Of a stretch of 64,000 bases of DNA, positions 9,650 through 63,727 are shown in pieces. The stretch comes from a virus. Taxonomy: Duplodnaviria; Caudoviricetes. The notes under the pieces were generated by a model. The model was not told the DNA's origin. It saw only the letters and a program-made list of their open reading frames with translations, and did not search any database. Location of the stretch: the IMG/VR virus record IMGVR_UViG_3300021255_002065, positions 64,001 to 128,000 of that record. The stretch is one strand, 5' to 3'. Both the position numbers and the translations under genes were made by a program. Position 1 is the first letter of the stretch; every line of letters begins with the position of its first letter.

Positions 9650-9783
9650 TGTATCTATATATAATTAATATGATATAGAAATATATCTATAATATTTCAT
9701 CCTTATGATCAACTCATAAGAACCTAAGTTGAATGCATATACACATAGGTCGATCATGTAGGATTCCAAAAGGAGGTAATCTT
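9650..9783 (+). promoter_or_regulatory. AT-rich putative early promoter plus structured 5' leader (copy A)
   Basis: TATAATTAATATGATATAGAAATATATC and the leader motifs TGATCA, TTGAATGCATATA, GTCGATCAT, GGATTCC-AAAAGGAGG recur at 50484-50615 (minus). Confidence 0.7.
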
Positions 9784-10311
9784 ATGAGAAGAATGTTTAG
9801 AGAATGCAGAGAGACCAGAGACGTTGAACGTCGCTGGAGCGAAAGACTGGAAGCAGCATCCAAATTTACTCAGTCTGAAGAGTTCAAATTATCAGAGGGA
9901 ATGTCCCCTGAGGAAAGAGCCAAATATGAAAGAATGGCGAGAGAACACCTGGGTATCCCGCAGGATGCTGAAGTAGACTGGTATGTGGCTGGCAAAATAG
10001 CAAAAGAAATTCTCGAAATCAAGCGAGATCAAAAACTTGGCAAAGGGAACATCCTCTTTGGAATCGGGAAGAAAAGCGATGAGGAAATCAAGGAAATCCT
10101 CGAAGCGAGGAAGCCTGAAATGCCTAAATTAAGAGAGGTTGAAAAGTCCCTCTCTAACGAAGGCGTACTTAAGGCTGAAACCCAACCGCAGCAGTCTCAG
10201 CAGTCTTATTCGGACAAATACCAGGCTGCAATGCAGGCAGCCCAGCAATTGGCATCTTCTGGTTACTATACACTGGAAGATGCCGTTCGCATTGTAATGG
10301 CAAATCTCTAA
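9784..10311 (+). CDS. Hypothetical accessory protein; C-terminal ~58 aa shared with the next ORF
   Basis: AGGAGG RBS; ends ...KYQAAMQAAQQLASSGYYTLEDAVRIVMANL. Confidence 0.75.
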   Translation: MRRMFRECRETRDVERRWSERLEAASKFTQSEEFKLSEGMSPEERAKYERMAREHLGIPQDAEVDWYVAGKIAKEILEIKRDQKLGKGNILFGIGKKSDEEIKEILEARKPEMPKLREVEKSLSNEGVLKAETQPQQSQQSYSDKYQAAMQAAQQLASSGYYTLEDAVRIVMANL

Positions 10312-10318
10312 AACAAGC

Positions 10319-10388
10319 GACCTGAGTAAGTCATTAAACTGCTCAATCATATACAAATAAGTCCAGCTCATGACTTGAGAAACCGAGC
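10319..10388 (+). ncRNA. Tandem H-type pseudoknot intergenic element (copy 1)
   Basis: GAC-CT-GAGT-AA-GTC..AAAC-T-GCTC then AAGTC-CA-GCTC-AT-GACTT..AAAC-C-GAGC; three near-identical copies in the window. Confidence 0.7.
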
Positions 10389-10410
10389 GTAATTAAAGGA
10401 GGAAATCATT

Positions 10411-10758
10411 ATGTTTGAATTCGGTAATTTTGAAGAAATCCGCGAAATAGACGAAATAGATGAACTCGATTCCAATACTTCTAATGGATACAAGTATACG
10501 AGTGCTGAAGTATGGAAGATGGGAAGAGCTGCTATTGAAAAGCTTTTTGAAGCCAACAAAGATATCTTATTCCCAGAGGTTGAAAAAGACCTCTCTAACG
10601 AAGGGGTATTGAGAGCTGAAACCAAGGCACAGGCTCAGGCACAGCAGCAATCTTACGATGAAAAGTATAGAGCTGCAATGCAGGCAGCTCAGGAGTTGGC
10701 AGCCTCTGGCTATTATACACTGGAACAGGCAATCCAGATTGTAATGGCGAATCTCTAA
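10411..10758 (+). CDS. Hypothetical accessory protein, C-terminal paralog of 9784-10311
   Basis: AGGAGG RBS; ends ...KYRAAMQAAQELAASGYYTLEQAIQIVMANL. Confidence 0.75.
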   Translation: MFEFGNFEEIREIDEIDELDSNTSNGYKYTSAEVWKMGRAAIEKLFEANKDILFPEVEKDLSNEGVLRAETKAQAQAQQQSYDEKYRAAMQAAQELAASGYYTLEQAIQIVMANL

Positions 10759-10765
10759 CAGTAAG

Positions 10766-10835
10766 CGACCTGAGTAAGTCGTTAAAACTGCTCAATCATA
10801 AACATAAGTCCAGCTCATGACTTGAGAAACCGAGC
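10766..10835 (+). ncRNA. Tandem H-type pseudoknot intergenic element (copy 2)
   Basis: Near-identical to 10319-10388; first stem extended to CGAC/GTCG. Confidence 0.7.
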
Positions 10836-10857
10836 ATACCCTAAGGAGGTAATTATT

Positions 10858-11190
10858 ATGAAAAATATTGTTCAATTTTTGCAGGCAGTCGAAATCGCTG
10901 ATATTATCAGCAAAGAGCTTCAGAATGACTCCAGATATCTTGCTGATTATATCCTGGAAGCTGCAAAAGAATCCGGGTATTATATCTGGTCTCAGTCAAT
11001 GGAGGTTGCTGAATCCGCAGTAAAATTATCAATTCCGGTACTGAAATACGTACCTGAACAAGAGTGTGATGCTTCAGTTATCTATAAAATCCAGGCTGCA
11101 TTTGTGATCAACAATATCAAACAGTTGGACGAGATGAAGACTGCAGAAAGAAAGGCTCATCAAGAGCCAACTTTCATGTATTTCATCTAA
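10858..11190 (+). CDS. Hypothetical accessory protein
   Basis: AAGGAGGT RBS before ATG 10858 (MKNIVQF...). Confidence 0.7.
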   Translation: MKNIVQFLQAVEIADIISKELQNDSRYLADYILEAAKESGYYIWSQSMEVAESAVKLSIPVLKYVPEQECDASVIYKIQAAFVINNIKQLDEMKTAERKAHQEPTFMYFI

Positions 11191-11197
11191 CAGAACA

Positions 11198-11268
11198 TCC
11201 CTGCTGAAAAGCAGGGAGGTGAGTATATGAATTATCGTATATTGACCTCTCTGCTTTTTTCTTTTCTT
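11198..11268 (+). terminator. Long-stem terminator/attenuator with an alternative upstream hairpin (copy A)
   Basis: AAAAGCAGGGAGGT...ACCTCTCTGCTTTT plus T tract; homologous copy at 49703-49772 (minus). Confidence 0.7.
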
Positions 11269-11303
11269 GTACACACATATTGTTTAATTGAGGGGGTGAT
11301 ACA

Positions 11304-13168: not shown

Positions 13169-16100
13169 TTAAACGCCTTTTGCAAGACGTTGAATTTGTT
13201 TTGGAATATTGTTATCTGGGAAAGCATTCTGTGGTGTTTGTTTTGGAGTTGTGGTTTGTTGTTTGCTTGATAAGTTGTCCATTTTATCCAGAATCTGTTG
13301 TAACAGAATTTCCACTTGTTCCGCACGAACATTGTACGTATGATTCATCATACGATCTATCATTTCATCTTCTGCTTTAGAAGACTTTGTGACAATCACA
13401 TTCGTAGTAGATGCTCGTGGAAGTTCGTTTGCATCAATCATTAGATTGGATAGATCATTTGTACCGACAGTTTGCATGATCTTGCTTTGGTCAATCGGTG
13501 GAATCGGTATCTCGTCACCACTACCAGCAATTCGGTTGTTGATATCTTCCAAGATAGAAGAAGTCTTTCCAACAATATAGTCGCCAGGACAAGATTTATC
13601 GGTAAACATTCTATGATACGTCCACGAACCACTGGGATCTCCAGTATATTCGAATTTCTTAATACCATTACGCTTTGCAACGTCAACTGTTAATTGTTTT
13701 GCAGATTCCATTGCAGCATCGCTAATTTCCCAACTATTATCATGGTTTTTCTTGTATCTAGCATACGCTTCCGGTTTATTTGCGATTTCAATTGTAACAG
13801 CTTTTTCATCATTATCTGGACTGCTAGATGTGTTTGGTACATTACTTTCATCTACAAACAAGCCAATTTTACCACTACCATCAACACCATATGTTGCAGA
13901 AACACCGGATCTGCCATTTGGATTTGTTTTTGCAACATCTCCAGATGTTCCGGCAAATGTTTTCTTTAAGTCATCCAAGGTATCTCCATTACTATTTGCC
14001 CATGTATGCCATGTCATTTTTGTAATCGGACCAGGTCTTGGACCAGAGTGCATATCCTTTTCACCTTTACGTTCGGTAATCAGATATGAGGGATCAGCCA
14101 ATGAAGAATTGGTGAATCCAGATGTTCCACTGCTAGTTGTTAAAGAACCTGTGCTATTCACATTTGTTCCTGATGCTGATGTGGCACTTTGTGAATACTT
14201 ATTTGCATCCACATAGTTTGCAATACCACCGATAGATCCAAATGCATAACTGGAGAAGCCTTTTCCTTGACCACTGTTACGTGCAATACCTGTGTAGCCA
14301 TATGTTTTCGCTGCCCAGTTTACTGCAGTTGGATGTTTACCAACCTGATATCCCAAGATACCTCCCGCATTAGTCGATCCAGCATTAATAGTTCCAGCTA
14401 CCAATGAATTATTTGGACGAATGACATAGTTGTATTTTCCACCTAAGGTGTCAGCGTCATTCATAACTGTTGAAATGGATTCACCATTTAGAATACGATT
14501 TGCAACACTTTGTGTGATTTTAATTGCATCTGTGGATCCATAATTCCAACCTTTCAGTTTACCATCGATCATTCCATAACCTATTTCACCATGACCTGTT
14601 CCAGCGCCATAGTCTGGATGAACAAGGATGTCACCTGGTTGTACACCTTCTTTTCCAACATTTTCCCATGGTATTGCTTCGAAATCTTGTGTCTCTTGTC
14701 CATCTTTTGTGACAGGATATTGCATACCCTTTTCTGCACGATTTCTCAATCCAGAAGCACTGATGTTGTTTGTATCATAACCTAGATAATCAAATGCATA
14801 TTGATACATGCCAGTGCAATCGATACGACCATGCAATGTTTTACCATCTAATGTAATCGGAACGGTTTTGCTCATATTATAATCGTGATGACCTTCTACA
14901 TCTGTTTGATGGATTACTCTATTGAGTGTATTGATCCATGGACTGCTTGCCAAATCAGTTGTTACATTAGCACCAAACTGACCACCGTTTACGTCAACCA
15001 TACCACCATTTGTTCCCTTGAATCGTTCATATGCTTGTTGTGCACGTTCACGACGTTTAGATTGTGCTTGACCATTGCAACGTTCAAACTTATCCATCCA
15101 TGTATCTGAAGCTGCTTGTACAGAACCAACATTTTGCATTGCGGAGTGTGCTTTCTTCTCGCTATTCTCCAATTCACTTTTCATGAATTCCAATTGCATT
15201 GGTAAGTCAGCAATCGACTTTCCATCCGATGTGGCTTTAGATAACATATTTGTTCGACGACCACCAAGCCATTGTGCAATACCGTATGGATCATTTGTAC
15301 CAAGTGGCCAACTATGTGTAGAATCAAATTTGTCAACTAAATCTCTGTTGAAGCTATCGGGTTGTGAGTGGTCGGATCCACCTTGTACATAGACTGCCAT
15401 CGGATAATATCCGCTTTCTGCGGAAAGGTTACCCATGACACCAGCAGCTGCCATTTCAGAATATCCCAAGTTATTTCTCAGATAATTCCAAATAATACCC
15501 ATATTCGTATCTTGATTGGAATATGTGGAATATGCATCAGGACCACCAGTACCAGTTCCGATTTGTGCAGCATTCTCGGCATAATTGGTTTGTGCATTTG
15601 TTTCATAAGATGATGGTGCAACTGCATAACCATTTCTCAATAACCAGTTATAGACACCGACAGCAGTACCAACATTCTCTGCCAATCCTTTTGTGGTATA
15701 AACTTTCGGAGGTTGTAAGTCACCTTGATAGAAGTATGTGGAACCTTCAATCAAGTCAGTATTCAGTTTATCTGCATAACGATCACCAGGGCTAAGTGTA
15801 AACCCAGCTCTACCAGTTGTTTCTTTAAAGACAGATTCGCCACCCTTTTTCACAATATCATTACGATATGTTCCTGAAGTGGTTTTACCATCCATTGGAG
15901 TCATTCTCCAATATCTATCTTTAATATACTTCAATTGTTCTTCTACGCTATTTGCAGCAACACCTGATTCAACCCAGTTCATGATACCTTCCGCACGTTG
16001 ACCAGATCCATCATACGTTGTTGCAGTTAAGCTCTTTGTCCCAACCAGTTTTTTTGCACCATCTTCCCAGATACCTGTGGAAATGATTGTTGCAATTTCA

Positions 16101-19100
16101 GCTGGTGTCATACCAGCGGCCGCACCTTTTTGGATAAAGGCTGGCCATTCATCGGCATATTTCTTTGCATAAACGTCCCAAGTGTTACCACTTTCAAGCG
16201 AACCTTCAAATGGGATTTCACCTTGTACGGCTCCAGCAGATGCAGTAGGCTGATGGTACTTAAAGTATGTTAATGGATTAACCCATGAACCATCTTCATT
16301 ACCGTGTCCAGGTGGATTGATTTGATAGTGGACATGTTCTCCAGTAGACTTACCTGTTGAACCAATTACACCAAGCAACTGACCGGGAGTAATTGTATCA
16401 CCAATATTCACTGTTGGCTTATCACGCATATGTGCATAACGGTGGAAGTATCCGGCAGCATCTTCGAACTGTACGGAGTTGCCCCAACCACTATCGCTAG
16501 TTTGATCGTATGGAGAATTTGCATTTCCTTCATTCGCATATCGAACGTCAATTACTTTACCACCTGTAATTGCATGTAACTCAGATTTACCAGCTTGCAT
16601 AGTAGATGCAGGATATGTGAGGATGTCAACGCCTTGGTGTGATTCATCTGTGCTACCAGTACCAGTTTTGTCAGGAGTAGAACGTCTTGTATACCAACCA
16701 CCATTTTGGGAGAACGCATATTGTGTTGCACCAGTTGTATCACTTGCACCACTTGTTTGCCAGAAGAATTCATGAACTGGTGATTTGGATAATGTGGTAC
16801 CACCATCTTCAGTAATGTCTGTATCAAAGATGGTTGGCTGATATGCGTCCGTCCACATGACAGCACCGCCATCAGAAACAAACTTACCAGCGTATGGGTC
16901 ATTGTAAGAGGATTCTACGATACCACCGCCTTGACCGAGAGCAGCATTTAACATACCGCCACTCCATGTACCGGTCTCGGCATCGTATTCACCATAAATA
17001 GAAGACATACTACCTTCGGATGCATCTACCATACCATTGACTTTCATGGCATTCATGATGTTCGCATTGTTCTTAGCAACAGCATTCAGGTATTTACGTT
17101 TAATACTTTCATTTTCCCACATGGATTTTATCCGTGCTTCATAATGTTCATCTGTTTCTGTTGCAGCCTTTGGATTATTCTGACGAAGTAATTCATATGC
17201 TTGTGATGCATAACGTTCATATTCTTCATTACCAACTGCTTCACGAATTACCTTTTCAACACGTTTCTCTTCTGCTTCCTTCACTGATTCCTCTACTTCA
17301 GAATCTTCATTTGCAGAGAACATTTTCAGAATATTAGAGAAAATGCCAGTGAGTCCACTCATCGCATTCTTAATACGTTCGGAGAAACTATCACCTTCAA
17401 TTTTTGGTATGACACTCGGATTTGCATCAGCGGAGAGCTTTTGTTCTGTGCTGATATATCCTGTACTACCACCGGGTGGTGCTGTAATAGAAGTTGTTCC
17501 ACTAGTTGTTCCAAGTGAACCTGCCGTTCCAGCTGTATCTGCAATCTCTGAATTACCAGATGTACCAGATTCTAGATTCTGCAACAATGGATTTGCATCT
17601 TTAATCTTATTGAAAATCTTACTCCAGCTCCAGTTCTTACTATTGGAATACCATGAATCAAATGTCGGTGGTTGTGAAGAAGGATTCTTACTCATGTAAT
17701 CTTGTACATAATCTTTATACAAAGCTTCCAATGCTTCAGATGCAGAGTTTGCAAAGAATTCTTCAATGGATGGAGGATTCGACGATGGATTTTGCTGCAT
17801 ATACATTGCTAAATACTGTTGATACAATGGCTCAAGTACCCTGCGACGAGCAGCTGTTAATTGTGCTTTTGCAGTAGCTGCAGTAATTGTAACTTTATTG
17901 TGTGAATAAATAGATTGAATAGCAGCAGTCTTTGCAGTTTCTACTTCGCGTGGATCTTCCACTTGTCCATACTTATTTCTGTTTAATGTGTTTAATACAA
18001 ATTCCGCACGTTTATTTTTCAACCAAGCTTTGATTGCGGGAAGCACTTGATTTATATTAGATGCAGTAATCTTTGCATCATTCAATTGAGATGCAAGCCA
18101 ATTCCATTTATCACCCTTCCATGATACAGGATCACTCTGATTCCACATATTGTCAATTACTGTCTTTTCATCACTTGTTAATTCATCATAGAAATGTTTT
18201 GTGGTCGTTTTGGTAAATGTATAATAACCGGATGGTCCGGCACCATACAAATGATACCAAGCAGCATTTGCTCCACGAACATCTCCAGAACCATATAGAC
18301 CAACAACTGAAGAAGATGCCAATTCATTTGCAGAACGACGTTCTACTCGACCACTTAATGGATTGGATACATAAGCACCACCAGCATGGTCCGTACCAAC
18401 GACGTTGATGTAGTGTGTGTTTCCAGAACGTGTTCCGAATCCAGCACCACTACCAACAAGTGTAACAGGGTTATTTGGAGTTGCACGATTCAAAGATTGT
18501 GATGTCACACCACCGACCTGATATCCCATACCCATGGATGCAGCTGTATCAATAAATCCACCAACACTTGTACCACGAGAAGACGAATAACTACCAGAGG
18601 ATGCCATGCTACTTGCTAATGCACCAGCATTTACATTTCCACCACGTCTGTTTGCAGCATCCGCTAATGCAACAGGACCACATCCACGTTGACTCATATT
18701 CAGATAAGATCCATATCTACCTTGAGAATCACCAGAACCAAAGTAATCACGATAACCACTCGCTGATGTTGTCGTAACTGGTATTGTTGGGATTGTCACA
18801 GTTGTATTAGTATTCGTATTATTAGTAGGATCATTAGAAGTTTCATTGGCAACTGGTGTATTATCTTCTGCAATCTCAGAGGATGTTGTTGTGTCAGTAG
18901 CATCAGGATATAGTGATGAAATATAGAAAGGCTGTCCTGTTGTGAGATAAGATACCTGGTTTGCTTTCGATGTGACACCTTCAGCTTGATATGCCATGCC
19001 AGACGCCGATAAACCAATTGATGTTTGGAATAAGGCTGCACCAGCAGCAGTGGATCCGGCAGCGACTAATTGTAATGCATCAGCAGCAAGTTGTTGTCCA

Positions 19101-22100
19101 TAATAAGCTTGATTATTACCAATCGACAATTTTGTCAATGACTCAATCGATTCCAATGTCGGAACAACATCTGTTTTGAATGATGCATACATCGGAATGA
19201 ATACCTTAGATGCCATCATCATTTGTTTATTGATATGCTTGGTTACATTACCCAACATCATTTCTTGATATGCATTACTATTTTCCATCGACGGTTCTAC
19301 TGTTTCTTCTTGAACAGTTCTCGTCTTGTGTAATTCATTCCAAATCGCTTCTAAGAATGGACCAAATGTTTCGATTGGATTATATCGCTGATCCTCACTA
19401 TAGGTATCACCAGAACCACGGATAGAATCCATCGTACCACCAGTTGATGGAATAGGTGTTGCAATCGCATTCGATTGATCGGATTTCAATCCAGAAGCGG
19501 ATGCATCAGATTTGGTTTCTTTATTTTTACCAGTCAATGCACCAACCGACGAATCAATTTGTTCTTTTGCACCTTCTAGTGTTTCTTCTGAAGCATTAAA
19601 CATATCTGTTCCTGCTTGTTTAATCTTCTTACCGGCACTTCCCGTAAATGGCATTAAATCTATAACAGTACCAATACCTTCTAAGATTTTACCGAGAACC
19701 ATTTGTAGACCGCCAATTGCACCTTGTATGCCCCCTGCGATAATACCGAGAATATTTGCAACCTTTGTCAAGAGCCATGTCGCACCATCAATGAATTTTC
19801 CCAATGGTCCATCTGTCACATACCAATTGATCAACATTGTTGTCAGATTTAATAATGGATTGAGAATTGGCATTAATGCACCTATCAAAGAACCGACAGC
19901 TTGCAAAATAGGAGTTAATACTCCTTCTAATATATCACCGATGGATTCTACAATCGTTCCAATTGCTGTTAAAACAGGTCCGACAACATCCATGACAAGA
20001 TCCAATATCATGTTAATTGGTCCAACCAGCACATCGATTAATCCTGTTAGCACATTTAAAATGGGATCAAGTGCTCCTATGATTCCACCTAATAAATCAC
20101 CAACTAGATCAACCAATACATTTAGCACTGGCATTAACGAATCCACTAATTTAACAACTAAATTTGCAATATATTTAATGGAGTCACCGACGGCTTTTAA
20201 TAGCTTCTTAATGGTTCCTGTCAACTTCTTAAATGCTTTATTCAATGGCTTAACCGCAGTTGTCAATGTTTTTTGTACAAGATCCATGATGGCTTTCACA
20301 GCAGTTAATGATGCAATCGCAGTCAATATCATTTTACCGAAACCCTTTAAGATACTGCCGATTCCTTTTACAACCCTCAGTATACCTCCCAATGCTCCGA
20401 CGCCTCCGGACGCAGGTGCACCAATTGTTGGATCACTTGTTGTGGTTCCGTCTTCAGAATCACCTTTCTTCTTAAAGAATTTATTTTTGATATTTGAGAA
20501 GAAGCCGCCACCAGACCCTCCATTTGTGCCTGCTTTCACACCTTCTTTGGAACCCTTTTCGGAACCTTCACGTGTACCTTTCTCTGCAGCTTTTGCTAAT
20601 GCTTTTGCTTCTTTTTCAGCTCGTTTCTGTGCACGTCTCTCTTCTTTCTGTGCCTTCTTTGCTTCTGCACGTTTCTCACGTTCTTCTTTACGTTTTTCAC
20701 GTTCCTCTTGTGTTCCCCAGATTTGTGTCCATCCTTTTTTCACATCATTCATACCGGATTTCATTCCCTTTTTCACCAGATTCAATGCTGGTGTGAGAAC
20801 TTTCTGTCCGATAAATCTAAATGCCGCACCTAATTTCTTTTTAATCCATGCACCAATGACTCCAATTGCCGGAAGAATGTATTTGGAAATCGCACTACCG
20901 AGAGGGGATTTACTAAGAGCACCGTTCACTTTGTTCTTGATACTATTCTTCATGTTAGTACCCCACATGGTGAACATCTGGCTCAGTTTGTTACCCAATC
21001 CTTTATTCTTCATTTGAGAGGTGATACGTTTTAAGAATGGCAAATCACTTGCGAGATCACCATCTGAAGCTTGTGTTTGTGCCATCTTTGTTGCAGTATC
21101 AGAAATGATTTCATCTTCTTTGGAAGTTTCTTCTCCTGCTTTTTTGTCATCACCACGACCATAGATGTTATTTAAGATAGAAGGAATATTACCACTACCT
21201 GTTGTATTTTTCACATTAAGATGGTTAATAGCACTGATGATGCCTTCCAGTTTTCCAAACAAATTTGTTTCGAAATCCGCACTAATACCAGCAGTTTCTG
21301 TTTTGGAAACCTTGGTTGCATTAGACATCTTGGTTGCATCAATGTCTTCACGAATGATACCTGCTTTCGCCCTTTTGTCCTTTTCAACAATCTCGACATC
21401 TTTCTGCTGTTCTTCATTCTTCTTCAAGTTTTTGTCGGCTAGTTCTCCAGCCCAATCATTTGGATCTTTTACACTACCTCTCTTCAATTTACTTTTATTT
21501 GCTTCTTCATATTTTTTTTCTTGCTCTTTATATTCGTCCGTCTCTTTGATTCTAGCTATTTCAGCATCACGTCGTTCATTTATGTTAGTTTGTGCAGTTC
21601 TGACTTGAGCATTGTTTTTAAAAGAATTTATGATGTCTTCTTTCGTGAGGTTCTTACTTGCACGACCCATGGCTGCATCGTCATTTTTTCGTTTTATATC
21701 AGCTTCGGTTGCTGATTGTAATATTTTAAATACATCCGCCATGAATGTTCCCGGTGTTTCTGTAGACCCTGTAAAAATATTTGCTCCAGATTCTGGATTA
21801 TTAATGGCTAACCTTAATGAATTGAACCATGTATTGAAATCATCATCACCAGCCAATCCAAAATCCGGATTGGATGTGCATATAGATTTTATTGTTTCCC
21901 AATCAAAAATTTGTTGGAATTCAGTTGCATTTTTTACTTCAATCGGATCACCCATATATCTGATTAAAACTGCCGATGAGAATGCTTCCTGATAGTTCAG
22001 TGCCTTCGTCTTTATACGATGCTGCAGTTCAGATTCGATTTGCTGTCTCTTTTTCTCTCGCATTTGTTTTTTTGCTGTTACATCAAATGCTTTCCTTGTA

Positions 22101-23545
22101 TATGTTTGACCATTATTTGAAGCTTCTTGTTCCAATTTGGTTTGTTCCTCATTCCATGCGGCTTCGAGATCAGTATCATTTATTTTTCCAGCTTCTACAC
22201 CAGATCTCTTTTTCAAATCCTTATTGATATTGGCTTGATGATCTGTGCTATTAATCGCGGTAATATTAGAACTTAAGGCAGCATCTAATACACGTTCTTG
22301 TGAATTACGAGAACCATGTTGTGAAACATGACCATTCGCATGATCCCAAGCAACCCCTGTCATGGATTGTGCAATGACTTTCAAATATCCAGGAATGATT
22401 TCTGTGATGGATTGTCTGGTGATACCATCAAAGACAGCTTTGTCTCTGTTATATTCATTCTTGATTTCAGCTTGATATTCACCAACTGTACTAGATTTCA
22501 ATGTTAATCCTTTATTTAATGCTTCGGATAACATATCGCCGAAAAATGGAATCTTGCCCAATGCATCATTGAGTTTCTTATTTCCACCTAATAGCACATT
22601 GGAGATTGCATCACCAATCATATTATTGAAGCTGCTTCCAATTGTATTGAGTGAATTATTTGCAAACTTTTCAGAAAAATTGGTTTGTTTACCACCAATC
22701 AATTCTGTAAGAAAGTCGATACCACTACCAACAGCTGCTCCAACTTTACCAGTCTTCTTATCCTTTGTATCACTCAATAACATACTGATGATACCTGCTG
22801 GTGTTAATGCATCTTTTCCCATCGATAACATCTGTGCAACGATATTGTTTGTTGCAGCATCTTTCACATTGGATTTCATTTGGTTAAACCATGAACCCAA
22901 TGTCACACGTCCATGTGAATCAATTGCCGATTGATTCTGTGCTTTCATTTGTTCTTCTTCAATTTGTGTTTGGGTTTGTAATAACTTACCCAATGCATCA
23001 ATCTTTTCACCAATACCAATGATGGATTTGTTCATATTGTTTAATGATGTTACAATTTCACTTGCACGACCATCGATATGGGATACGATCTCAGCAGCAT
23101 TGATCATGGATGCTTCTGCTTGTTTTGCACCAATTTGGTACATTGCATTCACTTGTCCACGAGCAATGTCTTTCATGCTTTCTTCATCCGCAATTTTCGA
23201 ACTCGGAGATTCTTGTTCTCCGTCACCATCACCTTCACCAACTTGGAAACCGGCATCAAAATCAGAATCATTACCTCCGTTCAACAAACCATATTCATCA
23301 GATTCATCAGAACGTTGCATGAACCAATCTAATGCTTTCTTACCACCATTTTGTTTGATATCCGCAACAATATCAACTACTTTGGATTTTCCTTGGGTTA
23401 ATTGGTCACCGACTTCTTTTGCATCATTGATAAAGGTTGTGATGTTTTCAGTATAATCACTAAAATAATCCTTAGCAACTTCTTTACCAATATAAAGAAT
23501 CTGTCCGGGAATATTCGGAATGAAACTACTACCTTTTTTTGCCAT
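13169..23545 (-). CDS. Tape-measure/tail-associated lysin polyprotein (C39-like peptidase, M23 peptidase, tail lysozyme, NlpC/P60-like, Amidase_2)
   Basis: 3458 aa; amphipathic helical repeat region about 19500-20400; GCGP..HY..NP (C39-like); HQGVD..YAHM..HVH (M23); AGVMGNLSAES..GIAQW (tail lysozyme); DCTG..GDI..GH (NlpC/P60-like); WHT..TIE..HR..CPG (amidase). Confidence 0.85.
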   Translation of the reverse strand: MAKKGSSFIPNIPGQILYIGKEVAKDYFSDYTENITTFINDAKEVGDQLTQGKSKVVDIVADIKQNGGKKALDWFMQRSDESDEYGLLNGGNDSDFDAGFQVGEGDGDGEQESPSSKIADEESMKDIARGQVNAMYQIGAKQAEASMINAAEIVSHIDGRASEIVTSLNNMNKSIIGIGEKIDALGKLLQTQTQIEEEQMKAQNQSAIDSHGRVTLGSWFNQMKSNVKDAATNNIVAQMLSMGKDALTPAGIISMLLSDTKDKKTGKVGAAVGSGIDFLTELIGGKQTNFSEKFANNSLNTIGSSFNNMIGDAISNVLLGGNKKLNDALGKIPFFGDMLSEALNKGLTLKSSTVGEYQAEIKNEYNRDKAVFDGITRQSITEIIPGYLKVIAQSMTGVAWDHANGHVSQHGSRNSQERVLDAALSSNITAINSTDHQANINKDLKKRSGVEAGKINDTDLEAAWNEEQTKLEQEASNNGQTYTRKAFDVTAKKQMREKKRQQIESELQHRIKTKALNYQEAFSSAVLIRYMGDPIEVKNATEFQQIFDWETIKSICTSNPDFGLAGDDDFNTWFNSLRLAINNPESGANIFTGSTETPGTFMADVFKILQSATEADIKRKNDDAAMGRASKNLTKEDIINSFKNNAQVRTAQTNINERRDAEIARIKETDEYKEQEKKYEEANKSKLKRGSVKDPNDWAGELADKNLKKNEEQQKDVEIVEKDKRAKAGIIREDIDATKMSNATKVSKTETAGISADFETNLFGKLEGIISAINHLNVKNTTGSGNIPSILNNIYGRGDDKKAGEETSKEDEIISDTATKMAQTQASDGDLASDLPFLKRITSQMKNKGLGNKLSQMFTMWGTNMKNSIKNKVNGALSKSPLGSAISKYILPAIGVIGAWIKKKLGAAFRFIGQKVLTPALNLVKKGMKSGMNDVKKGWTQIWGTQEEREKRKEEREKRAEAKKAQKEERRAQKRAEKEAKALAKAAEKGTREGSEKGSKEGVKAGTNGGSGGGFFSNIKNKFFKKKGDSEDGTTTSDPTIGAPASGGVGALGGILRVVKGIGSILKGFGKMILTAIASLTAVKAIMDLVQKTLTTAVKPLNKAFKKLTGTIKKLLKAVGDSIKYIANLVVKLVDSLMPVLNVLVDLVGDLLGGIIGALDPILNVLTGLIDVLVGPINMILDLVMDVVGPVLTAIGTIVESIGDILEGVLTPILQAVGSLIGALMPILNPLLNLTTMLINWYVTDGPLGKFIDGATWLLTKVANILGIIAGGIQGAIGGLQMVLGKILEGIGTVIDLMPFTGSAGKKIKQAGTDMFNASEETLEGAKEQIDSSVGALTGKNKETKSDASASGLKSDQSNAIATPIPSTGGTMDSIRGSGDTYSEDQRYNPIETFGPFLEAIWNELHKTRTVQEETVEPSMENSNAYQEMMLGNVTKHINKQMMMASKVFIPMYASFKTDVVPTLESIESLTKLSIGNNQAYYGQQLAADALQLVAAGSTAAGAALFQTSIGLSASGMAYQAEGVTSKANQVSYLTTGQPFYISSLYPDATDTTTSSEIAEDNTPVANETSNDPTNNTNTNTTVTIPTIPVTTTSASGYRDYFGSGDSQGRYGSYLNMSQRGCGPVALADAANRRGGNVNAGALASSMASSGSYSSSRGTSVGGFIDTAASMGMGYQVGGVTSQSLNRATPNNPVTLVGSGAGFGTRSGNTHYINVVGTDHAGGAYVSNPLSGRVERRSANELASSSVVGLYGSGDVRGANAAWYHLYGAGPSGYYTFTKTTTKHFYDELTSDEKTVIDNMWNQSDPVSWKGDKWNWLASQLNDAKITASNINQVLPAIKAWLKNKRAEFVLNTLNRNKYGQVEDPREVETAKTAAIQSIYSHNKVTITAATAKAQLTAARRRVLEPLYQQYLAMYMQQNPSSNPPSIEEFFANSASEALEALYKDYVQDYMSKNPSSQPPTFDSWYSNSKNWSWSKIFNKIKDANPLLQNLESGTSGNSEIADTAGTAGSLGTTSGTTSITAPPGGSTGYISTEQKLSADANPSVIPKIEGDSFSERIKNAMSGLTGIFSNILKMFSANEDSEVEESVKEAEEKRVEKVIREAVGNEEYERYASQAYELLRQNNPKAATETDEHYEARIKSMWENESIKRKYLNAVAKNNANIMNAMKVNGMVDASEGSMSSIYGEYDAETGTWSGGMLNAALGQGGGIVESSYNDPYAGKFVSDGGAVMWTDAYQPTIFDTDITEDGGTTLSKSPVHEFFWQTSGASDTTGATQYAFSQNGGWYTRRSTPDKTGTGSTDESHQGVDILTYPASTMQAGKSELHAITGGKVIDVRYANEGNANSPYDQTSDSGWGNSVQFEDAAGYFHRYAHMRDKPTVNIGDTITPGQLLGVIGSTGKSTGEHVHYQINPPGHGNEDGSWVNPLTYFKYHQPTASAGAVQGEIPFEGSLESGNTWDVYAKKYADEWPAFIQKGAAAGMTPAEIATIISTGIWEDGAKKLVGTKSLTATTYDGSGQRAEGIMNWVESGVAANSVEEQLKYIKDRYWRMTPMDGKTTSGTYRNDIVKKGGESVFKETTGRAGFTLSPGDRYADKLNTDLIEGSTYFYQGDLQPPKVYTTKGLAENVGTAVGVYNWLLRNGYAVAPSSYETNAQTNYAENAAQIGTGTGGPDAYSTYSNQDTNMGIIWNYLRNNLGYSEMAAAGVMGNLSAESGYYPMAVYVQGGSDHSQPDSFNRDLVDKFDSTHSWPLGTNDPYGIAQWLGGRRTNMLSKATSDGKSIADLPMQLEFMKSELENSEKKAHSAMQNVGSVQAASDTWMDKFERCNGQAQSKRRERAQQAYERFKGTNGGMVDVNGGQFGANVTTDLASSPWINTLNRVIHQTDVEGHHDYNMSKTVPITLDGKTLHGRIDCTGMYQYAFDYLGYDTNNISASGLRNRAEKGMQYPVTKDGQETQDFEAIPWENVGKEGVQPGDILVHPDYGAGTGHGEIGYGMIDGKLKGWNYGSTDAIKITQSVANRILNGESISTVMNDADTLGGKYNYVIRPNNSLVAGTINAGSTNAGGILGYQVGKHPTAVNWAAKTYGYTGIARNSGQGKGFSSYAFGSIGGIANYVDANKYSQSATSASGTNVNSTGSLTTSSGTSGFTNSSLADPSYLITERKGEKDMHSGPRPGPITKMTWHTWANSNGDTLDDLKKTFAGTSGDVAKTNPNGRSGVSATYGVDGSGKIGLFVDESNVPNTSSSPDNDEKAVTIEIANKPEAYARYKKNHDNSWEISDAAMESAKQLTVDVAKRNGIKKFEYTGDPSGSWTYHRMFTDKSCPGDYIVGKTSSILEDINNRIAGSGDEIPIPPIDQSKIMQTVGTNDLSNLMIDANELPRASTTNVIVTKSSKAEDEMIDRMMNHTYNVRAEQVEILLQQILDKMDNLSSKQQTTTPKQTPQNAFPDNNIPKQIQRLAKGV

Positions 23546-49615: not shown

Positions 49616-49702
49616 AATGCGATCACCGCCTTTCCATTCGTAATGAAAGGTTTTAGCTTTTCGTTGTTGAGAAATATAAAGAACCTTTTTGATATAAAAA
49701 AT

Positions 49703-49772
49703 AAAAGAAAAAAGCAGGAGAGTCAATATACGATAATTCATATACTCACTCTCCTGCTTTTCTGCAGGATGA
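49703..49772 (-). terminator. Long-stem terminator/attenuator (copy B)
   Basis: TCCTGCAGAAAAGCAGGAGAGTGAGTATATGAATTATCGTATATTGACTCTCCTGCTTTTTTCTTTT on minus; homologous to 11198-11268. Confidence 0.7.
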
Positions 49773-50483: not shown

Positions 50484-50615
50484 AGTAATTCCTCCTTTTC
50501 GGAATCCCCAATGATCGACTCGGGTATATATGCATTCAACCTGAGTATACCATGACATGATCATGGAGATATAATATTATTATTGATATATTTCTATATC
50601 ATATTAATTATATTT
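50484..50615 (-). promoter_or_regulatory. Putative early promoter plus structured leader (copy B)
   Basis: Homologous to 9650-9783 with compensatory stem changes. Confidence 0.7.
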
Positions 50616-50647
50616 ATATGAAAAAATAAAATAATAGAGACAGATGA

Positions 50648-50667
50648 GGTGGGCCAATTGGCCCACC
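50648..50667. terminator. Perfect palindrome hairpin
   Basis: GGTGGGCCAATTGGCCCACC between divergent units. Confidence 0.5.
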
Positions 50668-58633: not shown

Positions 58634-60247
58634 ATGGAAGAATTAGAATATTTCTGGGAGTGTATGGTGGAATCCAAACAGAATGTGTTTGATGCAATCG
58701 TTGCAGAAAATGAAAAGGAACATATGTTGGTGGAACAATATCTGATGAAACAAGCAGAAGGTAGAATCACATTGGAAAGTTCTGATATGGGAATTCGTCT
58801 ATGGCAATTACTTAAGAAAACGAGTAAAGCCACAAGTGGTATTGCCGATCATGCAGTCAACTTGTTAAAGGGTATTTTCCATGTAAAAAATGGAAGTAAA
58901 AAACCAACAAAAACTCCAAATGCAATTGCACAACAAGTTGTACCAAGTTCCAAACTTCCAAAAGCACAACAGGAAGTGGAGAAGAATTTGAAAACTCCAT
59001 TCAAAGGAAAAGAGAATGTGGTATTAAGTGCAACTCCTATTTTTATTAAGGAAATTACACAAGATGAAGGGTTATACATCGGATTATTCGGTGTTAACTA
59101 TATCAAGAACGAAAAGGGACAGTTGGAACATGTTTCCAACTCCCATGGTATCAAGGGATTGGAAGACAATACCATCATCTACAAGAACATGGTGTATTAT
59201 ATCAAACATCCAGAAGCATTTGAAAATCTTGCAAGGATTGTGGAACAAGCCGGTGATTTGGTAGATGGTGGAAATGTTGACCAAGCAAAGCTTCGTGAAG
59301 CCATCAAAAAGACGGTTGCGAAGAGCCATGCTCCCGGTCGTGAATTCAATGCTGGTGGTACGAAATTAACCATGAAGGAATTGACAACATTCGCTGCTAA
59401 AGTGAATCAGTTAACAAATGCAATGGACAAATTCCAGAATGGTAATAATCACTTGAATGGATTTGATTCTGAAACAATTACGGCAATGAACCAATTGGTT
59501 CGTGAATTGGAAACTTGTCAACATGGTATCAATGGTTTGGCAAATGAGGTTGGTAAGCTGTACATGATCAAAGCACAATATGTGAACTCTATCACGGATA
59601 AAAATGACTTGGCAAAGTTTGTGGAAATGTGTATTGATGCTGGTGTACCACCAAAGTTTGTTGCATACAATACATGGCTGATTGCAAATGAAGAAATCCG
59701 TGGTGATAAAGTAGACTTTAATAAAGTGCCAATGGGACAAACCAGAATGGTGCTCTTCCCGAAGGATAAAAAGATCATCACCAAGATTGCGTTTAGTGGT
59801 CGTGGATTAACTTCTAACAAGAACGAAGTAAGAATGAGTGAATTTATCCAGCGGAGTAAAGAAGAGGATATGATCAAGATTGCTGCTCCGATTGTTGGAA
59901 AATATGGTAAAGACTGTGCAGTTATTGATATGGAACGTGTTGTCGATAAAGTTGGGAAACACCCCAATCCAAAAATGTTAAATCAGGTAAAGGGGCAGTT
60001 CATAGACTTTGTACAACGTCATCCTGAATTGAGATTGGTGGTTACCGACTTTAATGATGGAAATATCATGTGGTCGAGCGATCGTGATTGTTGGGTATGT
60101 ATTGACTATGGCTGTGGTCAACGTGATAACATTTCTGAAGAGAAACTGCAACAACGTGCTGAGAAGAAACAAGCGGCATACAAAACTCGCACTGGTAAAG
60201 ATAAAATATTAGATGTTACGGTAGGTGATGATAATGACAACGATTGA
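58634..60247 (+). CDS. Paralogous propeptide-bearing protein-kinase-like protein
   Basis: MGQTRMVL, TKIA, NKNE, MERV, DFNDGN, IDYG; leader ending ITLE/S. Confidence 0.75.
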   Translation: MEELEYFWECMVESKQNVFDAIVAENEKEHMLVEQYLMKQAEGRITLESSDMGIRLWQLLKKTSKATSGIADHAVNLLKGIFHVKNGSKKPTKTPNAIAQQVVPSSKLPKAQQEVEKNLKTPFKGKENVVLSATPIFIKEITQDEGLYIGLFGVNYIKNEKGQLEHVSNSHGIKGLEDNTIIYKNMVYYIKHPEAFENLARIVEQAGDLVDGGNVDQAKLREAIKKTVAKSHAPGREFNAGGTKLTMKELTTFAAKVNQLTNAMDKFQNGNNHLNGFDSETITAMNQLVRELETCQHGINGLANEVGKLYMIKAQYVNSITDKNDLAKFVEMCIDAGVPPKFVAYNTWLIANEEIRGDKVDFNKVPMGQTRMVLFPKDKKIITKIAFSGRGLTSNKNEVRMSEFIQRSKEEDMIKIAAPIVGKYGKDCAVIDMERVVDKVGKHPNPKMLNQVKGQFIDFVQRHPELRLVVTDFNDGNIMWSSDRDCWVCIDYGCGQRDNISEEKLQQRAEKKQAAYKTRTGKDKILDVTVGDDNDND

Positions 60248-61472
60248 TGAAATTGTACAAGAACAAGAGATGTCCACAGTTATTGCATTATTGGAATATT
60301 ATCAAAAACAACTGGACTTATCCGATTATGAAACGGACGTGTATGTGGAGCACGTCCGTAATATTGGTATGACAACTCCTTCCGAAAAAGCCAGAGAAGA
60401 ACAGGAGAAAGAAGAAGTAACAAATACTTCAAACAAGAAAGAATCTGTTGATGATAAACAAAGTCTTGGTACTAAAATCAAATCGGGAATTTCCAAATTG
60501 ATCAATATGATTATCAATGGATTTAAAAAGATTATTTCAAAGATAATGTCGATTGGAAAATCGGAAACAAAAGTCACAGATATGATTGTGAACAATCCAG
60601 ACGCTTGTAAAGAAGCTGGCGATAAATTACAACAGATAGCAAAGTCAAAGGTGACGCAGGAAGCCGCAACATTAACAGACGTTATCGCTCATAATAGATT
60701 TAAAGATCTCAATAAATTAAGCCCTGCTGAAAAAGCCGATCTCGTCCGTTATTATGATAAACAGCAAGCTGCCAAGAAAGCAGCAGAAGATGCAGCAAAA
60801 GATGCAGCTGAGCGAAAAGAAGCGATATCTGATGCAGTGAATTCAATAAAGAAATTTGTTCCATTTGGTTTATTAAGAAATATTGGTATTGGTGCAGTGA
60901 TTGCATTATGTGCAACTTTATTCATTCTGCTTTATAAAAGGAAAACCAATTATCAATTACCAAGTGTAACAGATATTGGTCGTTCTTGTGTAGAGCTGAA
61001 TTCACAATTACAAAAGTCCATGAATGGAAATGGACTCAAAAATGTCACAATCAATCCAAAAACAAAGGACTACATGACACGTGTTGCAAACTGGAATAAG
61101 AGATATACTAAGAATGAACCAGAATTTGAATCAAAGCATTCCGAATTCGAATTGACCAGAGAACAAGAAAAAATATTTGTTGATGCAGTTTATCTTGCAG
61201 CATCTGCAAAGAATGATCGATTCATCGGTGTGCTACAAGATTCTATTGGGTTATTAAAACAATTCAATGCTGTCATTAAAAAGAGTAATGGGATTGTGGT
61301 AAACCATTTGGTTGATGTTTCCAAACAATATGCAAATTTCATCATTGGAATTAATAAAGCAATCACAGTAGGTTCTGATCTAATCAAAAATATGGGATTA
61401 TCCTTACAACAAATTCGAGGATACCAAAATCAGAAAGAACGTGATTACAAACCTTCGAAAGCAATTATTTAA
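60234..61472 (+). CDS. Putative internal head protein, propeptide family, with a transmembrane-like helix
   Basis: QEMSTVIALLEYYQKQLDLSDY; amphipathic helix; IGIGAVIALCATLFILLY. Confidence 0.6.
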   Translation: MTTIDEIVQEQEMSTVIALLEYYQKQLDLSDYETDVYVEHVRNIGMTTPSEKAREEQEKEEVTNTSNKKESVDDKQSLGTKIKSGISKLINMIINGFKKIISKIMSIGKSETKVTDMIVNNPDACKEAGDKLQQIAKSKVTQEAATLTDVIAHNRFKDLNKLSPAEKADLVRYYDKQQAAKKAAEDAAKDAAERKEAISDAVNSIKKFVPFGLLRNIGIGAVIALCATLFILLYKRKTNYQLPSVTDIGRSCVELNSQLQKSMNGNGLKNVTINPKTKDYMTRVANWNKRYTKNEPEFESKHSEFELTREQEKIFVDAVYLAASAKNDRFIGVLQDSIGLLKQFNAVIKKSNGIVVNHLVDVSKQYANFIIGINKAITVGSDLIKNMGLSLQQIRGYQNQKERDYKPSKAII

Positions 61473-61486
61473 GGAAGTGATAATCA

Positions 61487-62473
61487 ATGATTGATATTGA
61501 GCAAGTAGTAATGGAATCAGAAATTGATGTATTATTGGAACAAACTTGTTTATTACAAAAAGAATCCATGTTATCAGATTATTATGTTGAAGCTGATGAA
61601 GTTACTGCCAATGATGAATCACCAAAGAATGACAATATCTTGAAAAAGATATGGGGTGGAATTGTTAGGATTATCCAGGCAATTGGCAATTGGTTTAAAA
61701 AGTTCTTTGATCGTTTCAAGAAGAAACGAAGCGATGGAAACTTTACACCGAAATATATCAAACTAGATGAGAATGGGAATTTCAAATATTGCATGTTTCC
61801 AAAATACAATGTAACTGATTCTACATTACCAGAACATCAACAAATCGAGAGTCAATTCCATTTACTATTGTCCTTTCTGTTTGAAGATGTCATGACATTC
61901 AATTATACAAAACATAAATTGTTTGATAATTTCTTAACTGCATTAGAGATGTATAAGAAGAATCATGAAAAACACGTGAAAGAAATCGCTGGTAAAAAAT
62001 TGAATATGACCAATCCAATTGGTAAAGAACGTGATTTGATTAAGAGATACACCAAACATATCTCAAAAGATTTCAAAATGGCAGGAAACTATCAAGCTGG
62101 TAATGAGAAACTGAACAAATGGGGAAATTATGCAATCAACCAAGGTGCGGAACATGCCATGATTGAAATCAAGAGTTTGGATGAAATCAAATTGGCTGAT
62201 CAACATATCATGGGTGCAATTAATGAAGCAAATGCTTGTTATAATGATTTAAGAAGTGCTCTGGGAATGGGTGAAAATCAAGCACGACCTCAACATTACC
62301 TGTTATCCAAAGATATTGCAAATGATGTATTACAAGTATTAAATAAGATGCTTGAATATATCAAAGACTTGACAAAGATGTATGAAATGACACTTGGTCA
62401 AGTTCGTATTGATTTAATCAACATGATCGAATATCAGAAACATCATAAACAAAACAAGAAAACTCAAAAATGA
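61487..62473 (+). CDS. Putative internal head protein, propeptide family
   Basis: ESEIDVLLEQTCLLQKESMLSDYYVE/A; NILKKIWGGIVRIIQAIGNWFKKFF. Confidence 0.6.
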   Translation: MIDIEQVVMESEIDVLLEQTCLLQKESMLSDYYVEADEVTANDESPKNDNILKKIWGGIVRIIQAIGNWFKKFFDRFKKKRSDGNFTPKYIKLDENGNFKYCMFPKYNVTDSTLPEHQQIESQFHLLLSFLFEDVMTFNYTKHKLFDNFLTALEMYKKNHEKHVKEIAGKKLNMTNPIGKERDLIKRYTKHISKDFKMAGNYQAGNEKLNKWGNYAINQGAEHAMIEIKSLDEIKLADQHIMGAINEANACYNDLRSALGMGENQARPQHYLLSKDIANDVLQVLNKMLEYIKDLTKMYEMTLGQVRIDLINMIEYQKHHKQNKKTQK

Positions 62474-62496
62474 TAACATCAACATTATTTATGTAT

Positions 62497-62520
62497 ATCC
62501 CCCGGCATATGCCGGGGGAT
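62497..62520. terminator. Bidirectional terminator (perfect palindrome)
   Basis: ATCCCCCGGCATATGCCGGGGGAT between convergent genes. Confidence 0.75.
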
Positions 62521-62531
62521 TGTGATGATGA

Positions 62532-63194
62532 TTAAATTCCAAGCTGCTTTTCTTTCGACACTGGAGATGGCGGTGTCGCAACCTTGTAACCTTTCTTTGT
62601 CACAAGGTCCTCGTATACAGTGAGTTCGCCGTCAAGATATTCGAGGGCCTCTTCGAGATTGATTGCGGGCTTAACGCCATTCTCAAACAGAAGCTCACGA
62701 GTCTTGATGTTGACCTCTTTGAGACTGAACATCTCATCGAGGTCTTCTTCACGAGGGAGACCGGTCCACTGTTCGCGGGGCAGACGGATGGCAATTGGCG
62801 CAAATTCGATATCGCCGATATTGCCGGTATACACCCAGCCTGCAATCAGTGTGAATGTTTCGGCTCTAACATCGTAATCATCCACTGCAATTACGATTTC
62901 GCGCTTACAGCCCATGTGGGTATCAAGAAGGGGGAAATGAATTCCTACCTTGTTGATGAAGTACTCATAATGGGTATCTGTAATTCCAGACTCCGGAAGT
63001 TCCTCACACAGAATTGAATTGGCTGTAAGAAGATTGACGATTTCAGCCATGATATTCTCAAGGTTGATTTCTCTGATTTCAGCCTCGGCCTGCAAATACT
63101 GCTGCCATGCAGTCTTCAAGCGGAAGTCTGTCTCTGCCTTTGTAATCTTCATTGCTTCTGTCAATGTTTTGTCAAATGTTTTCGATGCTTTCAT
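62532..63194 (-). CDS. Hypothetical accessory protein
   Basis: AAGGAGG RBS before MKASKTF; higher GC; preceded by the tandem pseudoknot element. Confidence 0.7.
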   Translation of the reverse strand: MKASKTFDKTLTEAMKITKAETDFRLKTAWQQYLQAEAEIREINLENIMAEIVNLLTANSILCEELPESGITDTHYEYFINKVGIHFPLLDTHMGCKREIVIAVDDYDVRAETFTLIAGWVYTGNIGDIEFAPIAIRLPREQWTGLPREEDLDEMFSLKEVNIKTRELLFENGVKPAINLEEALEYLDGELTVYEDLVTKKGYKVATPPSPVSKEKQLGI

Positions 63195-63218
63195 AATCAA
63201 TTCCTCCTTGGAATGTAT

Positions 63219-63286
63219 GCTCGGTTTCTCAAGACATGAGCTGGTCTTATGTTTATGATTGAGCAGTTTAACGACTTACTCAGGTC
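63219..63286 (-). ncRNA. Tandem H-type pseudoknot element (copy 3)
   Basis: GACCTGAGTAAGTCGTTAAACTGCTC...AAGACCAGCTCATGTCTTGAGAAACCGAGC; the second stem shows a compensatory change relative to copies 1 and 2. Confidence 0.7.
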
Positions 63287-63314
63287 AGATCCAACAGTAA
63301 GAATAAGTATCTTT

Positions 63315-63467
63315 TTACTGCCGGATAAGATACTGTGTAATATACATGCCGTTCAATAATTTGACAGCTTGTATATTAGATGCAACAGCATCTTTGTTTT
63401 GGGACTGGACTTTGTTTTGTATTTGTTGTTTGAGCAAGTCCAGTTCTTTGTCTGAAATTTTATGCAT
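63315..63467 (-). CDS. 50-aa hypothetical protein (not in the ORF track)
   Basis: AGGAGGTGA RBS; MHKISDKELDLLKQQIQNKVQSQNKDAVASNIQAVKLLNGMYITQYLIRQ*. Confidence 0.65.
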   Translation of the reverse strand: MHKISDKELDLLKQQIQNKVQSQNKDAVASNIQAVKLLNGMYITQYLIRQ

Positions 63468-63493
63468 GTGGATCACCTCCTAAATGCAGACAT

Positions 63494-63517
63494 GAGTGGG
63501 CCCATATGGGCCCACTC
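63494..63517. terminator. Perfect palindrome hairpin
   Basis: GAGTGGGCCCATATGGGCCCACTC. Confidence 0.55.
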
Positions 63518-63727
63518 TTATTCGGATAAAAATAATAAACCTTTTAACGACATGCTCGGGTCGGATGAAAAAGCGTCCGGCAGACGCTTGGTAAATTAAG
63601 AACATAAATTTGAATACGATCTTAATTCATATAAATGATATATATACCAAAAAATGAAAAAATGCAAATTTTGTATGCTACACCGGAAAACCGGGGATTA
63701 ACTTATATTTCGAAAGGAGTCTATAGC

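Follow-up and report, generated by a model that had tools for sequence, protein, structure and literature searches.

Mobile regulatory cassettes known as promoter-early stem-loops (PeSLs) have been described in T4-type phages (Arbiol et al. 2010, PMC2839356; Comeau et al. 2014, PMC4122927). These composite terminator/promoter motifs flank ORFans in hyperplastic regions (PMC2839356). Recombination, probably in their AT-rich part, inserts, deletes, or replaces the flanked genes while supplying expression signals (PMC2839356; PMC4122927). The subject of this study is a set of three islands of small genes in a 64,000-nt stretch of phage DNA (the window), which comprises bases 64001-128000 of the 148,094-bp viral record IMGVR_UViG_3300021255_002065 (G000). 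An earlier note on this DNA had proposed that the islands are plug-in expression units built from a shared kit of noncoding parts, and that these parts act both as regulators and as homology arms for shuffling the cargo genes. This cassette-shuffling idea is the published PeSL model, here in another lineage. We put at roughly 0.7 the probability that the islands are self-contained early-expression cassettes, which occupy hyperplastic sites in the genome of a ~295-kb jumbo phage and are swapped at their shared noncoding parts.

All of the genomes compared here are metagenome assemblies. Related contigs that cover the three loci number in the dozens in rumen-type metagenomes. The complete relative used was a 294,548-bp IMG/VR contig (G001, also L038) rated as 100% complete. 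G000 is 55% complete (CheckV) and is collinear with about half of G001, with 82-98% nucleotide identity per segment (mostly 88-96%); therefore, the phage is a ~295-kb jumbo phage and G000 is a fragment of it.

Organization of the islands

All three islands were present where the earlier note had placed them. Their parts are listed below in window coordinates.

Island 1
9613-9632, plus strand: GC-rich palindromic hairpin, terminator of the upstream 391-aa gene and first element of the island-1 promoter module
9633-9694, plus strand: T-rich box and AT-rich putative early promoter, 15-nt core at 9659-9673
9695-9783, plus strand: type-1 5' leader with a strong terminal Shine-Dalgarno (SD) sequence, common to island 2
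9784-10311, plus strand: cargo gene A, 175 aa, ORFan
10312-10410, plus strand: spacer copy 1 and ribosome-binding site (RBS), two-unit element at 10319-10391
10411-10758, plus strand: cargo gene B, 115 aa, N-terminus like the 44-57-aa stubs of relatives, C-terminus an A-type domain
10759-10857, plus strand: spacer copy 2 and RBS, element at 10766-10839
10858-11190, plus strand: cargo gene C, 110 aa, ORFan
11198-11268, plus strand: long intrinsic terminator, ~25-bp hairpin and U-run, -35.2 kcal/mol, z -7.8

Island 2
50648-50667, minus strand: GC-rich palindromic hairpin before the island-2 promoter, kept in G001, which has no island 2
50578-50647, minus strand: T-rich box and promoter, core at 50599-50613
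50484-50577, minus strand: type-1 leader and RBS, 98% identical in the relative G002
49773-50483, minus strand: cargo gene D, 236 aa, ORFan, 3 clusters among 5.8 billion proteins
49700-49768, minus strand: long terminator, second version, -35.2 kcal/mol, z -8.8

Island 3
63627-63690, minus strand: T-rich box and promoter, core at 63627-63641, a C/T variant of the motif
63468-63626, minus strand: island-3 leader with two hairpins, and RBS, z -3.4
63572-63588 (63567-63588), minus strand: terminator-like hairpin with U-run in the island-3 leader
63543-63562, minus strand: partial unit-1 spacer repeat in the island-3 leader
63494-63517, minus strand: GC palindromic hairpin in the island-3 leader
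63315-63467, minus strand: cargo gene E, 50 aa
63195-63314, minus strand: spacer copy 3 and RBS, element at 63215-63289, 5' boundary of the F allele replacement
62532-63194, minus strand: cargo gene F, 220 aa, ORFan, 7 clusters, alleles 73-79% identical
62497-62520, minus strand: GC palindromic terminator hairpin of island 3, from which identity to G002 is back at 100%

Matches found by blastn bore out the claim that islands 1 and 2 share a promoter, leader, and long terminator, and islands 1 and 3 a spacer, around different genes. For islands 1 and 2 the matches cover 61 nt of the promoter (9634-9694 vs. 50578-50638; 89%, E 4e-13), 53 nt of the leader (9728-9780 vs. 50488-50540; 75%), and 69 nt of the long terminator (11200-11268 vs. 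49700-49768; 87-91%, E 1e-14). The spacers at 10319-10391 and 10766-10839 match 63215-63286 with 88-96% identity (E 1e-19 to 1e-27). Similarity of this extent goes far beyond what chance would give. The 16-nt palindrome of the island-1 hairpin recurs at 63498-63513 and outside the window.

Replacement of cargo alleles

Comparison with relatives revealed where the cargo alleles change. Island 3 is 97-100% identical to G002 through the promoter, gene E, and the spacer; identity falls to ~70-80% between the RBS and the F stop codon, and at the terminator hairpin and beyond it is 100%. In island 2, identity to G002 is 97-100% up to the start codon, ~75% in D, and ~100% from the long terminator. 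For island 1, identity to the relative L054 is 97-100% through the hairpin, promoter, and leader, collapses from about codon 3 of A, and is back to 100% at the long terminator.

Synonymous divergence (dS) between G000 and its relatives was 0.80-1.16 for D, F, C, and the C-terminal domain of A, as compared with 0.07-0.23 for flanking genes. The ratio of nonsynonymous to synonymous divergence (dN/dS) was about 0.1-0.2 in cargo and flanking genes alike. For D, comparison with the 80% identical G002 allele gave a dS of 0.97 (flanking genes, 0.08-0.23); for C, the 84% identical L054 allele gave a dS of 0.96 and a dN/dS of 0.12; and F had a dS of 0.8-1.2 and a dN/dS of 0.13-0.18, next to a neighboring gene with a dS of 0.12-0.16. 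Because dN/dS is low, we conclude that the cargo consists of real genes under purifying selection, which are not fast-evolving. The cargo alleles coalesce ~4-12 times deeper than the surrounding genome, which points to allelic replacement by recombination. Positive selection was rejected as the source of the cargo divergence, because dN/dS is the same as in the flanks and it is dS that rises.

Gain, loss, and reuse of cargo genes

The contents of the islands differ among relatives, as hypervariable cargo would, and the cargo of the proposed plug-in units differs even between near-identical genomes (90-96% identity). Between flanks that are 97-99% identical, island 1 carries six different cargo sets: A-B-C; a 44-aa stub; A' alone; A'' plus 47 aa; A''' plus 57 aa; and A'''' plus C'. 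The A alleles at this site are 45-82% identical and are mosaic: the first seven residues never vary, the middle is of one of about three unrelated types, and the C-terminal domain is conserved. The G001 version of island 1 consists of the promoter, spacer unit 2, a 44-codon gene resembling the N-terminus of B, and the same terminator. Island 2 is precisely absent from G001, where the hairpin runs straight into the sequence that follows the island-2 terminator. Gene E is missing from island 3 in G001 and from L048; the junction in G001 lies in the GTCGTTAAA core, common to the partial unit-1 repeat upstream of E and the downstream spacer. Five of the eight promoter units of G000 differ in cargo from G001.

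Two further relatives (G003 and G004) lack both island 1 and island 2, and in them the upstream hairpin and T-run abut the leader of the downstream gene. From this arrangement we conclude that the islands are insertions just behind a pre-existing terminator. The hairpin at 9613-9632 is present in relatives without island 1.

A search for the parts elsewhere found them around other genes at two places in G001. At 247.6-250.3 kb there is a four-gene array, the genes of which have no counterpart in G000; its parts are two hairpin-promoter modules, an internal type-1 leader, a spacer, and a third version of the long terminator. At 103.3 kb, a homolog of E (50% identical) precedes spacer unit 2, after which comes an unrelated gene. 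The parts are thus not confined to the three islands, and their gene neighbors are not fixed among relatives.

Cargo genes

The islands had been described as higher in GC content and their ORFs (open reading frames) as unrelated; each description holds for some of the genes. The GC content of A, D, and F is 45.5-45.9%, above the 99th percentile of 600-nt windows in a genome with a mean of 37.4%, but C (38.1%) and E (34.6%) are ordinary, and B (42.0%) lies just below the 95th percentile. A and B are not unrelated: they have a paralogous C-terminal domain of ~70 aa in common (62% identity). Both spacers of island 1 are part of a 447-nt unit duplicated in tandem, and this duplication also copies the A C-terminal domain.

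None of the six cargo genes belongs to a family in Pfam, PHROGs, or NCBIfam, and each has 3-11 homolog clusters. Profile searches of the PDB with the cargo gave nothing below E 0.6. A search of the ESM Atlas with F gave no usable match, and the Atlas model of F had a predicted local distance difference test score (pLDDT) of 0.42. AlphaFold2 models were too poor for a fold search (A, pLDDT 66 and predicted template modeling score [pTM] 0.33; D, pLDDT 57 and pTM 0.41).

The putative promoter module

The 15-nt promoter core, ATATMATTWATATGA, has eight exact copies in G000, five of them outside the window. There are 17 exact copies in G001, or 21 when one mismatch is allowed, 20 of these on one strand; reversed-pattern controls gave no exact core matches in the relatives. 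The promoter is shared by islands 1 and 2, but it is a genome-wide class and not a part private to the islands. The usual order of the module is a GC-rich palindromic hairpin, a TTCTATTATTT box, and the AT-rich core. In the 29 promoter modules of G000 and G001, the upstream hairpin (-8 kcal/mol or better) was found in 19 and the T-rich box in 20. The motif thins with distance: relatives at 55-84% protein identity have three copies each, and more distant ~250-kb relatives have none or one.

No consistent sigma70 -35/-10 pair was found in the conserved promoter block. A sigma70 reading was rejected, since the sole sigma70-like match is at island 1 and its -10 is not conserved among the copies. 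Each of the jumbo phages with their own RNA polymerases (RNAPs) has a conserved AT-rich motif upstream of its early operons, which is assigned to the virion RNAP (PMC7598289). Given that description, the architecture of the module, and the lack of a consistent sigma70 signal, we read the module as a terminator plus an early promoter. With timing and polymerase taken from the review statement and from gene content, this class is most likely an early promoter.

The gene content referred to is that of G001, in which PF00562 matches two beta-like ORFs (E 1e-9 and 3e-6) and PF00623 matches one beta'-like ORF (41.7 bits summed). These ORFs place the lineage among the jumbo phages that bring their own multisubunit RNAPs. 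There are none within the half-genome record G000; as judged from G001, the RNAP genes and most promoter modules sit in the half of the genome that is absent from G000.

Several modules have features of their own. At 126423-126845 G001 has an extra cassette of hairpin, promoter, and a 109-aa gene, polymorphic as a whole and directly upstream of the module that matches G000 genome position 7640, which is outside the window. The island-3 promoter subtype is also found at genome position 30621, followed by a long untranslated stretch with a hairpin. In island 3, the terminator-like hairpin of the leader lies only ~40-55 nt downstream of the core, with no gene in between; it may act as an attenuator or mark where a short RNA ends.

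Proposed recombination at the shared parts and alternative explanations

The mechanism we favor would operate as follows. A unit would start with a terminator hairpin, a T-rich box, and the conserved AT-rich promoter, which is probably read by the phage's own multisubunit, likely virion-delivered RNAP. The leader or the inter-cistronic spacer would supply a strong RBS for a cargo of one to three ORFan genes, closed by an intrinsic terminator. Because the parts are repeated in the genome and nearly identical among co-circulating relatives, general recombination during co-infection would cross over in them. Such crossovers would replace, insert, or delete whole cargo genes or alleles, each arriving with working expression signals. 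The exchange had been called recombinase-free, and in agreement with this neither a tyrosine integrase (PF00589) nor a RecA-family recombinase was detected by Pfam in G000 or the complete G001. According to the annotation of relatives, a RusA-type resolvase is encoded nearby, a few genes upstream.

The role of the parts as homology arms fits the allelic replacements, which have their boundaries at the leader/RBS, the spacer, and the terminator, but it fits the indels less well. Several observations weigh against exchange at shared parts. The homology at indel junctions is short (9-23 nt) and consists of T-rich tracts for islands 1 and 2; for gene E, it is a 9-nt exact core in a ~23-nt imperfect repeat. 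In the comparison of G000 with L054, the island-1 spacer is as diverged as the cargo (83-90%) and forms no boundary. When parts in either genome are counted, a kit part lies at only 9 of the ~28 indel or replacement differences between G000 and G001; those without one include a putative HNH endonuclease insertion and segments within a 3458-aa protein. Counting the parts of G000 alone, we found 4 such differences where 1.2 were expected (P about 0.03), a modest enrichment. The leader, spacer, and long terminator occur in only 2-5 copies per genome and are restricted to the closest lineage, and the promoter class and its early timing rest on a review statement and gene content. Finally, illegitimate recombination followed by selection for expressible inserts would look alike. 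Since the indel junction homology is short, the case for homologous recombination is an indirect one, made through the allelic replacements.

These points lead to the alternative that survives best, in which the parts are expression signals only; the islands would have arisen through local duplication and through illegitimate or microhomology insertion of foreign DNA. That breakpoints coincide with parts would then be a survivorship effect, with selection keeping only those inserts that landed behind a terminator and brought a promoter and terminator. In its favor, the junction homology is short, both island-1 spacers derive from one tandem duplication, and no kit part is nearby at 19 of the 28 structural differences. 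It does not account well for the replacements with a dS of ~1, which in all three islands have 60-200 nt of noncoding sequence with 97-100% identity on either side. Such boundaries are the expected product of a homologous crossover in those arms. In addition, the leader, spacer, and terminator recur at nonhomologous loci around unrelated genes. We regard survivorship as unlikely.

Other alternatives concern the leader, spacer, and long terminator as RNA elements. The island-1 leader is 92-94% identical in three relatives (L052-L054). Partial copies were found at genome positions 10040-10056 and, in G001, at 249.0 and 265.05 kb; in G001 the leader occurs as an internal intergenic element and also downstream of another promoter. 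A covariance model of the spacer found three copies in G000, four in G001 (two of them unit 2 only), one in G002, and none in seven more distant relatives. An exact spacer pattern had no matches in IMG/VR. Rfam gave nothing over the window at gathering thresholds, and only chance-level matches, at E up to 1, over island 1.

With further contigs included, 13 copies of the spacer could be aligned. The 31-nt core of unit 2 is almost invariant among them, and the only covariation is one compensatory pair in the 5-bp S1 hairpin of unit 2 (A-U in seven copies, U-A in six). Both S2 helices, which the pseudoknots need, are invariant; apparent changes in the S2 of unit 1 come from two rows that have no unit 1. 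The "tandem pseudoknot" of the spacer is therefore a possible fold, predicted rather than observed. Nested folds of the spacer and leader were no better than those of shuffled sequences (z +0.7 to -1.1).

Seven copies of the long terminator, in three versions, have a basal stem with five compensatory pairs and an invariant apical 26 nt. A 6-bp hairpin upstream competes for the 5' arm of the terminator and co-changes with the basal stem in the three versions. The apical part (11217-11262; 49706-49750; L044 10225-10275) holds an SD-like GGAG and an ATG, and also the string TATATGAATTA, which resembles the island-3 promoter core. Read from the opposite strand, the long terminator would be terminator-like too. 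A small ORF starting from the SD and ATG in the stem was rejected as a candidate, since no two copies agree in its length or in its sequence past the hairpin.

One way to join these observations would be an RNA "chassis" of leader, two-unit spacer, and long terminator, with a pseudoknot before every RBS, read by a phage factor that controls all of the swappable early genes. Selection would then act on its parts in two roles, as regulators and as arms for recombination, and the C-terminal domain of A and B would be an arm at the coding level. We consider this model quite improbable. Another alternative would make the three elements a dedicated RNA regulatory system, with pseudoknots before the RBS, a switchable terminator, and a phage factor, and would make recombination incidental. 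The near-invariant unit-2 core with its compensatory pair suggests such a function, as do the invariant terminator apex, the covarying basal stem, and the co-changing alternative hairpin. Against it, both S2 helices lack variation, the nested folds do not exceed shuffles, and Rfam has no match; moreover, the elements are absent beyond the closest lineage, so that their similarity may reflect young age. This explanation is very unlikely as an account of the islands.

It is less likely still that the mosaic pattern is an assembly artifact, with contigs chimeric between co-occurring strains at repeats: although every compared genome is assembled from a metagenome and repeats are where assemblers switch strain, the arrangements recur in independent assemblies and samples (L048 and L049; P0005 in three contigs; the window's own proteins in two contigs), which argues against chimeras, and even chimeric contigs would mean that deeply diverged alleles between near-identical flanks exist in the population.

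Exchange of cargo at the shared parts is the explanation that we consider the most likely.

Neighboring genes

The window contains virion genes for the most part, among them the following.

6807-8408: structural protein
34841-37027: major-head-like protein
13169-23545: 3458-aa ORF with M23 peptidase, tail lysozyme, and amidase domains and a weak C39-like match

PHROG matches are sparse. No T4-like matches were found. Among 50,697 phage records, island 1 (blastn) and the major head protein (tblastn) had no matches. The 3458-aa ORF was considered as an N4-type virion RNAP, an identity rejected on account of the peptidase, lysozyme, and amidase domains listed above. Compared with G001, it contains several segments that are diverged or differ by indels (13531-14204, 17494-18243, and 21840-22261).

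An endonuclease-like gene (PHROG 15137, DUF7487) at 48872-49615 adjoins island 2. It occupies the same site, beside a 1341-aa gene, in 26 viral contigs, and its 99.6% protein identity with the G002 copy makes it unusually conserved for its surroundings. Adjoining island 3 is a 2.2-kb block (60270-62452) that is replaced by 21 bp in G001. It carries genes for proteins of 415 aa (60225-61472) and 328 aa (61487-62473), the second of which is kept in G002 and L047-L049. A 1.3-kb insertion relative to G001, at 5321-6638, corresponds in position to an antisense 395-aa ORF (5357-6544); around it, at 5241-5324 and 6710-6793, the 3' end of the neighboring gene is repeated.

Comparison with known systems

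Like integrons, the islands line up small genes that can be exchanged, and in both systems the cassette ends carry a structured repeat. Integron cassettes are promoterless, whereas the cassettes described here carry their own promoters; no IntI-type tyrosine recombinase and no attI/attC system was found, and exchange appears to rest on ordinary sequence homology. A second comparison is with morons, in the concept of Hendrix and Juhala. Morons are classically found in temperate phages, are expressed from the prophage, and are not built from repeated shared noncoding parts. The islands resemble them in that additional genes, supplied with a promoter and terminator of their own, are inserted between conserved ones, in this case within the virion-gene region. 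Morons are often atypical in composition, and A, D, and F lie ~8 GC points above the genome.

The promoter module resembles the virion-RNAP promoters of jumbo phages in being a conserved AT-rich motif upstream of small-gene operons in a phage that encodes beta/beta'-like subunits; such motifs differ from phage to phage. The block found here is longer, with about 17 nt plus the T-box rather than the ~10 nt described (PMC7598289). It is usually coupled to an upstream terminator hairpin. In the virion-RNAP class, transcription begins ~10 nt downstream of the center of the motif, early in infection and without the host RNAP.

If the cassettes are exchanged as proposed, they indicate how a very large uncultured phage turns over its ORFan early genes: as ready-to-express units, with the shared parts marking the exchange points. 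The analysis also yields a candidate early-promoter motif and a set of fast-exchanging ORFans (the A family, D, and F) that are candidates for host-takeover or counter-defense activity.

The closest likeness is to PeSLs. Both systems place a composite of terminator stem-loop, AT-rich tract, and early promoter before ORFans; in both, most copies are spread over variable regions and a few lie within virion modules. Where phages of ~95% identity differ by indels or replacements, the junctions fall in the motifs in both systems, and no site-specific recombinase is involved. A further trait of the PeSL system is the excised cassette mini-circle. The host of the PeSLs is a T4-type myovirus, whereas the islands belong to a ~295-kb uncultured phage with multisubunit RNAP genes and no T4-like matches. 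PeSLs have a sigma70 -35/-10 consensus and the modules described here have no consistent one. The kit is also larger here and includes a 5' leader, an inter-cistronic spacer of two units, and a ~25-bp long terminator; these extra shared parts would make exchange possible inside an operon. The islands would thus carry the PeSL principle to phages outside the T4 type and to promoters that are not of the host type, in a lineage with an RNA polymerase of its own.

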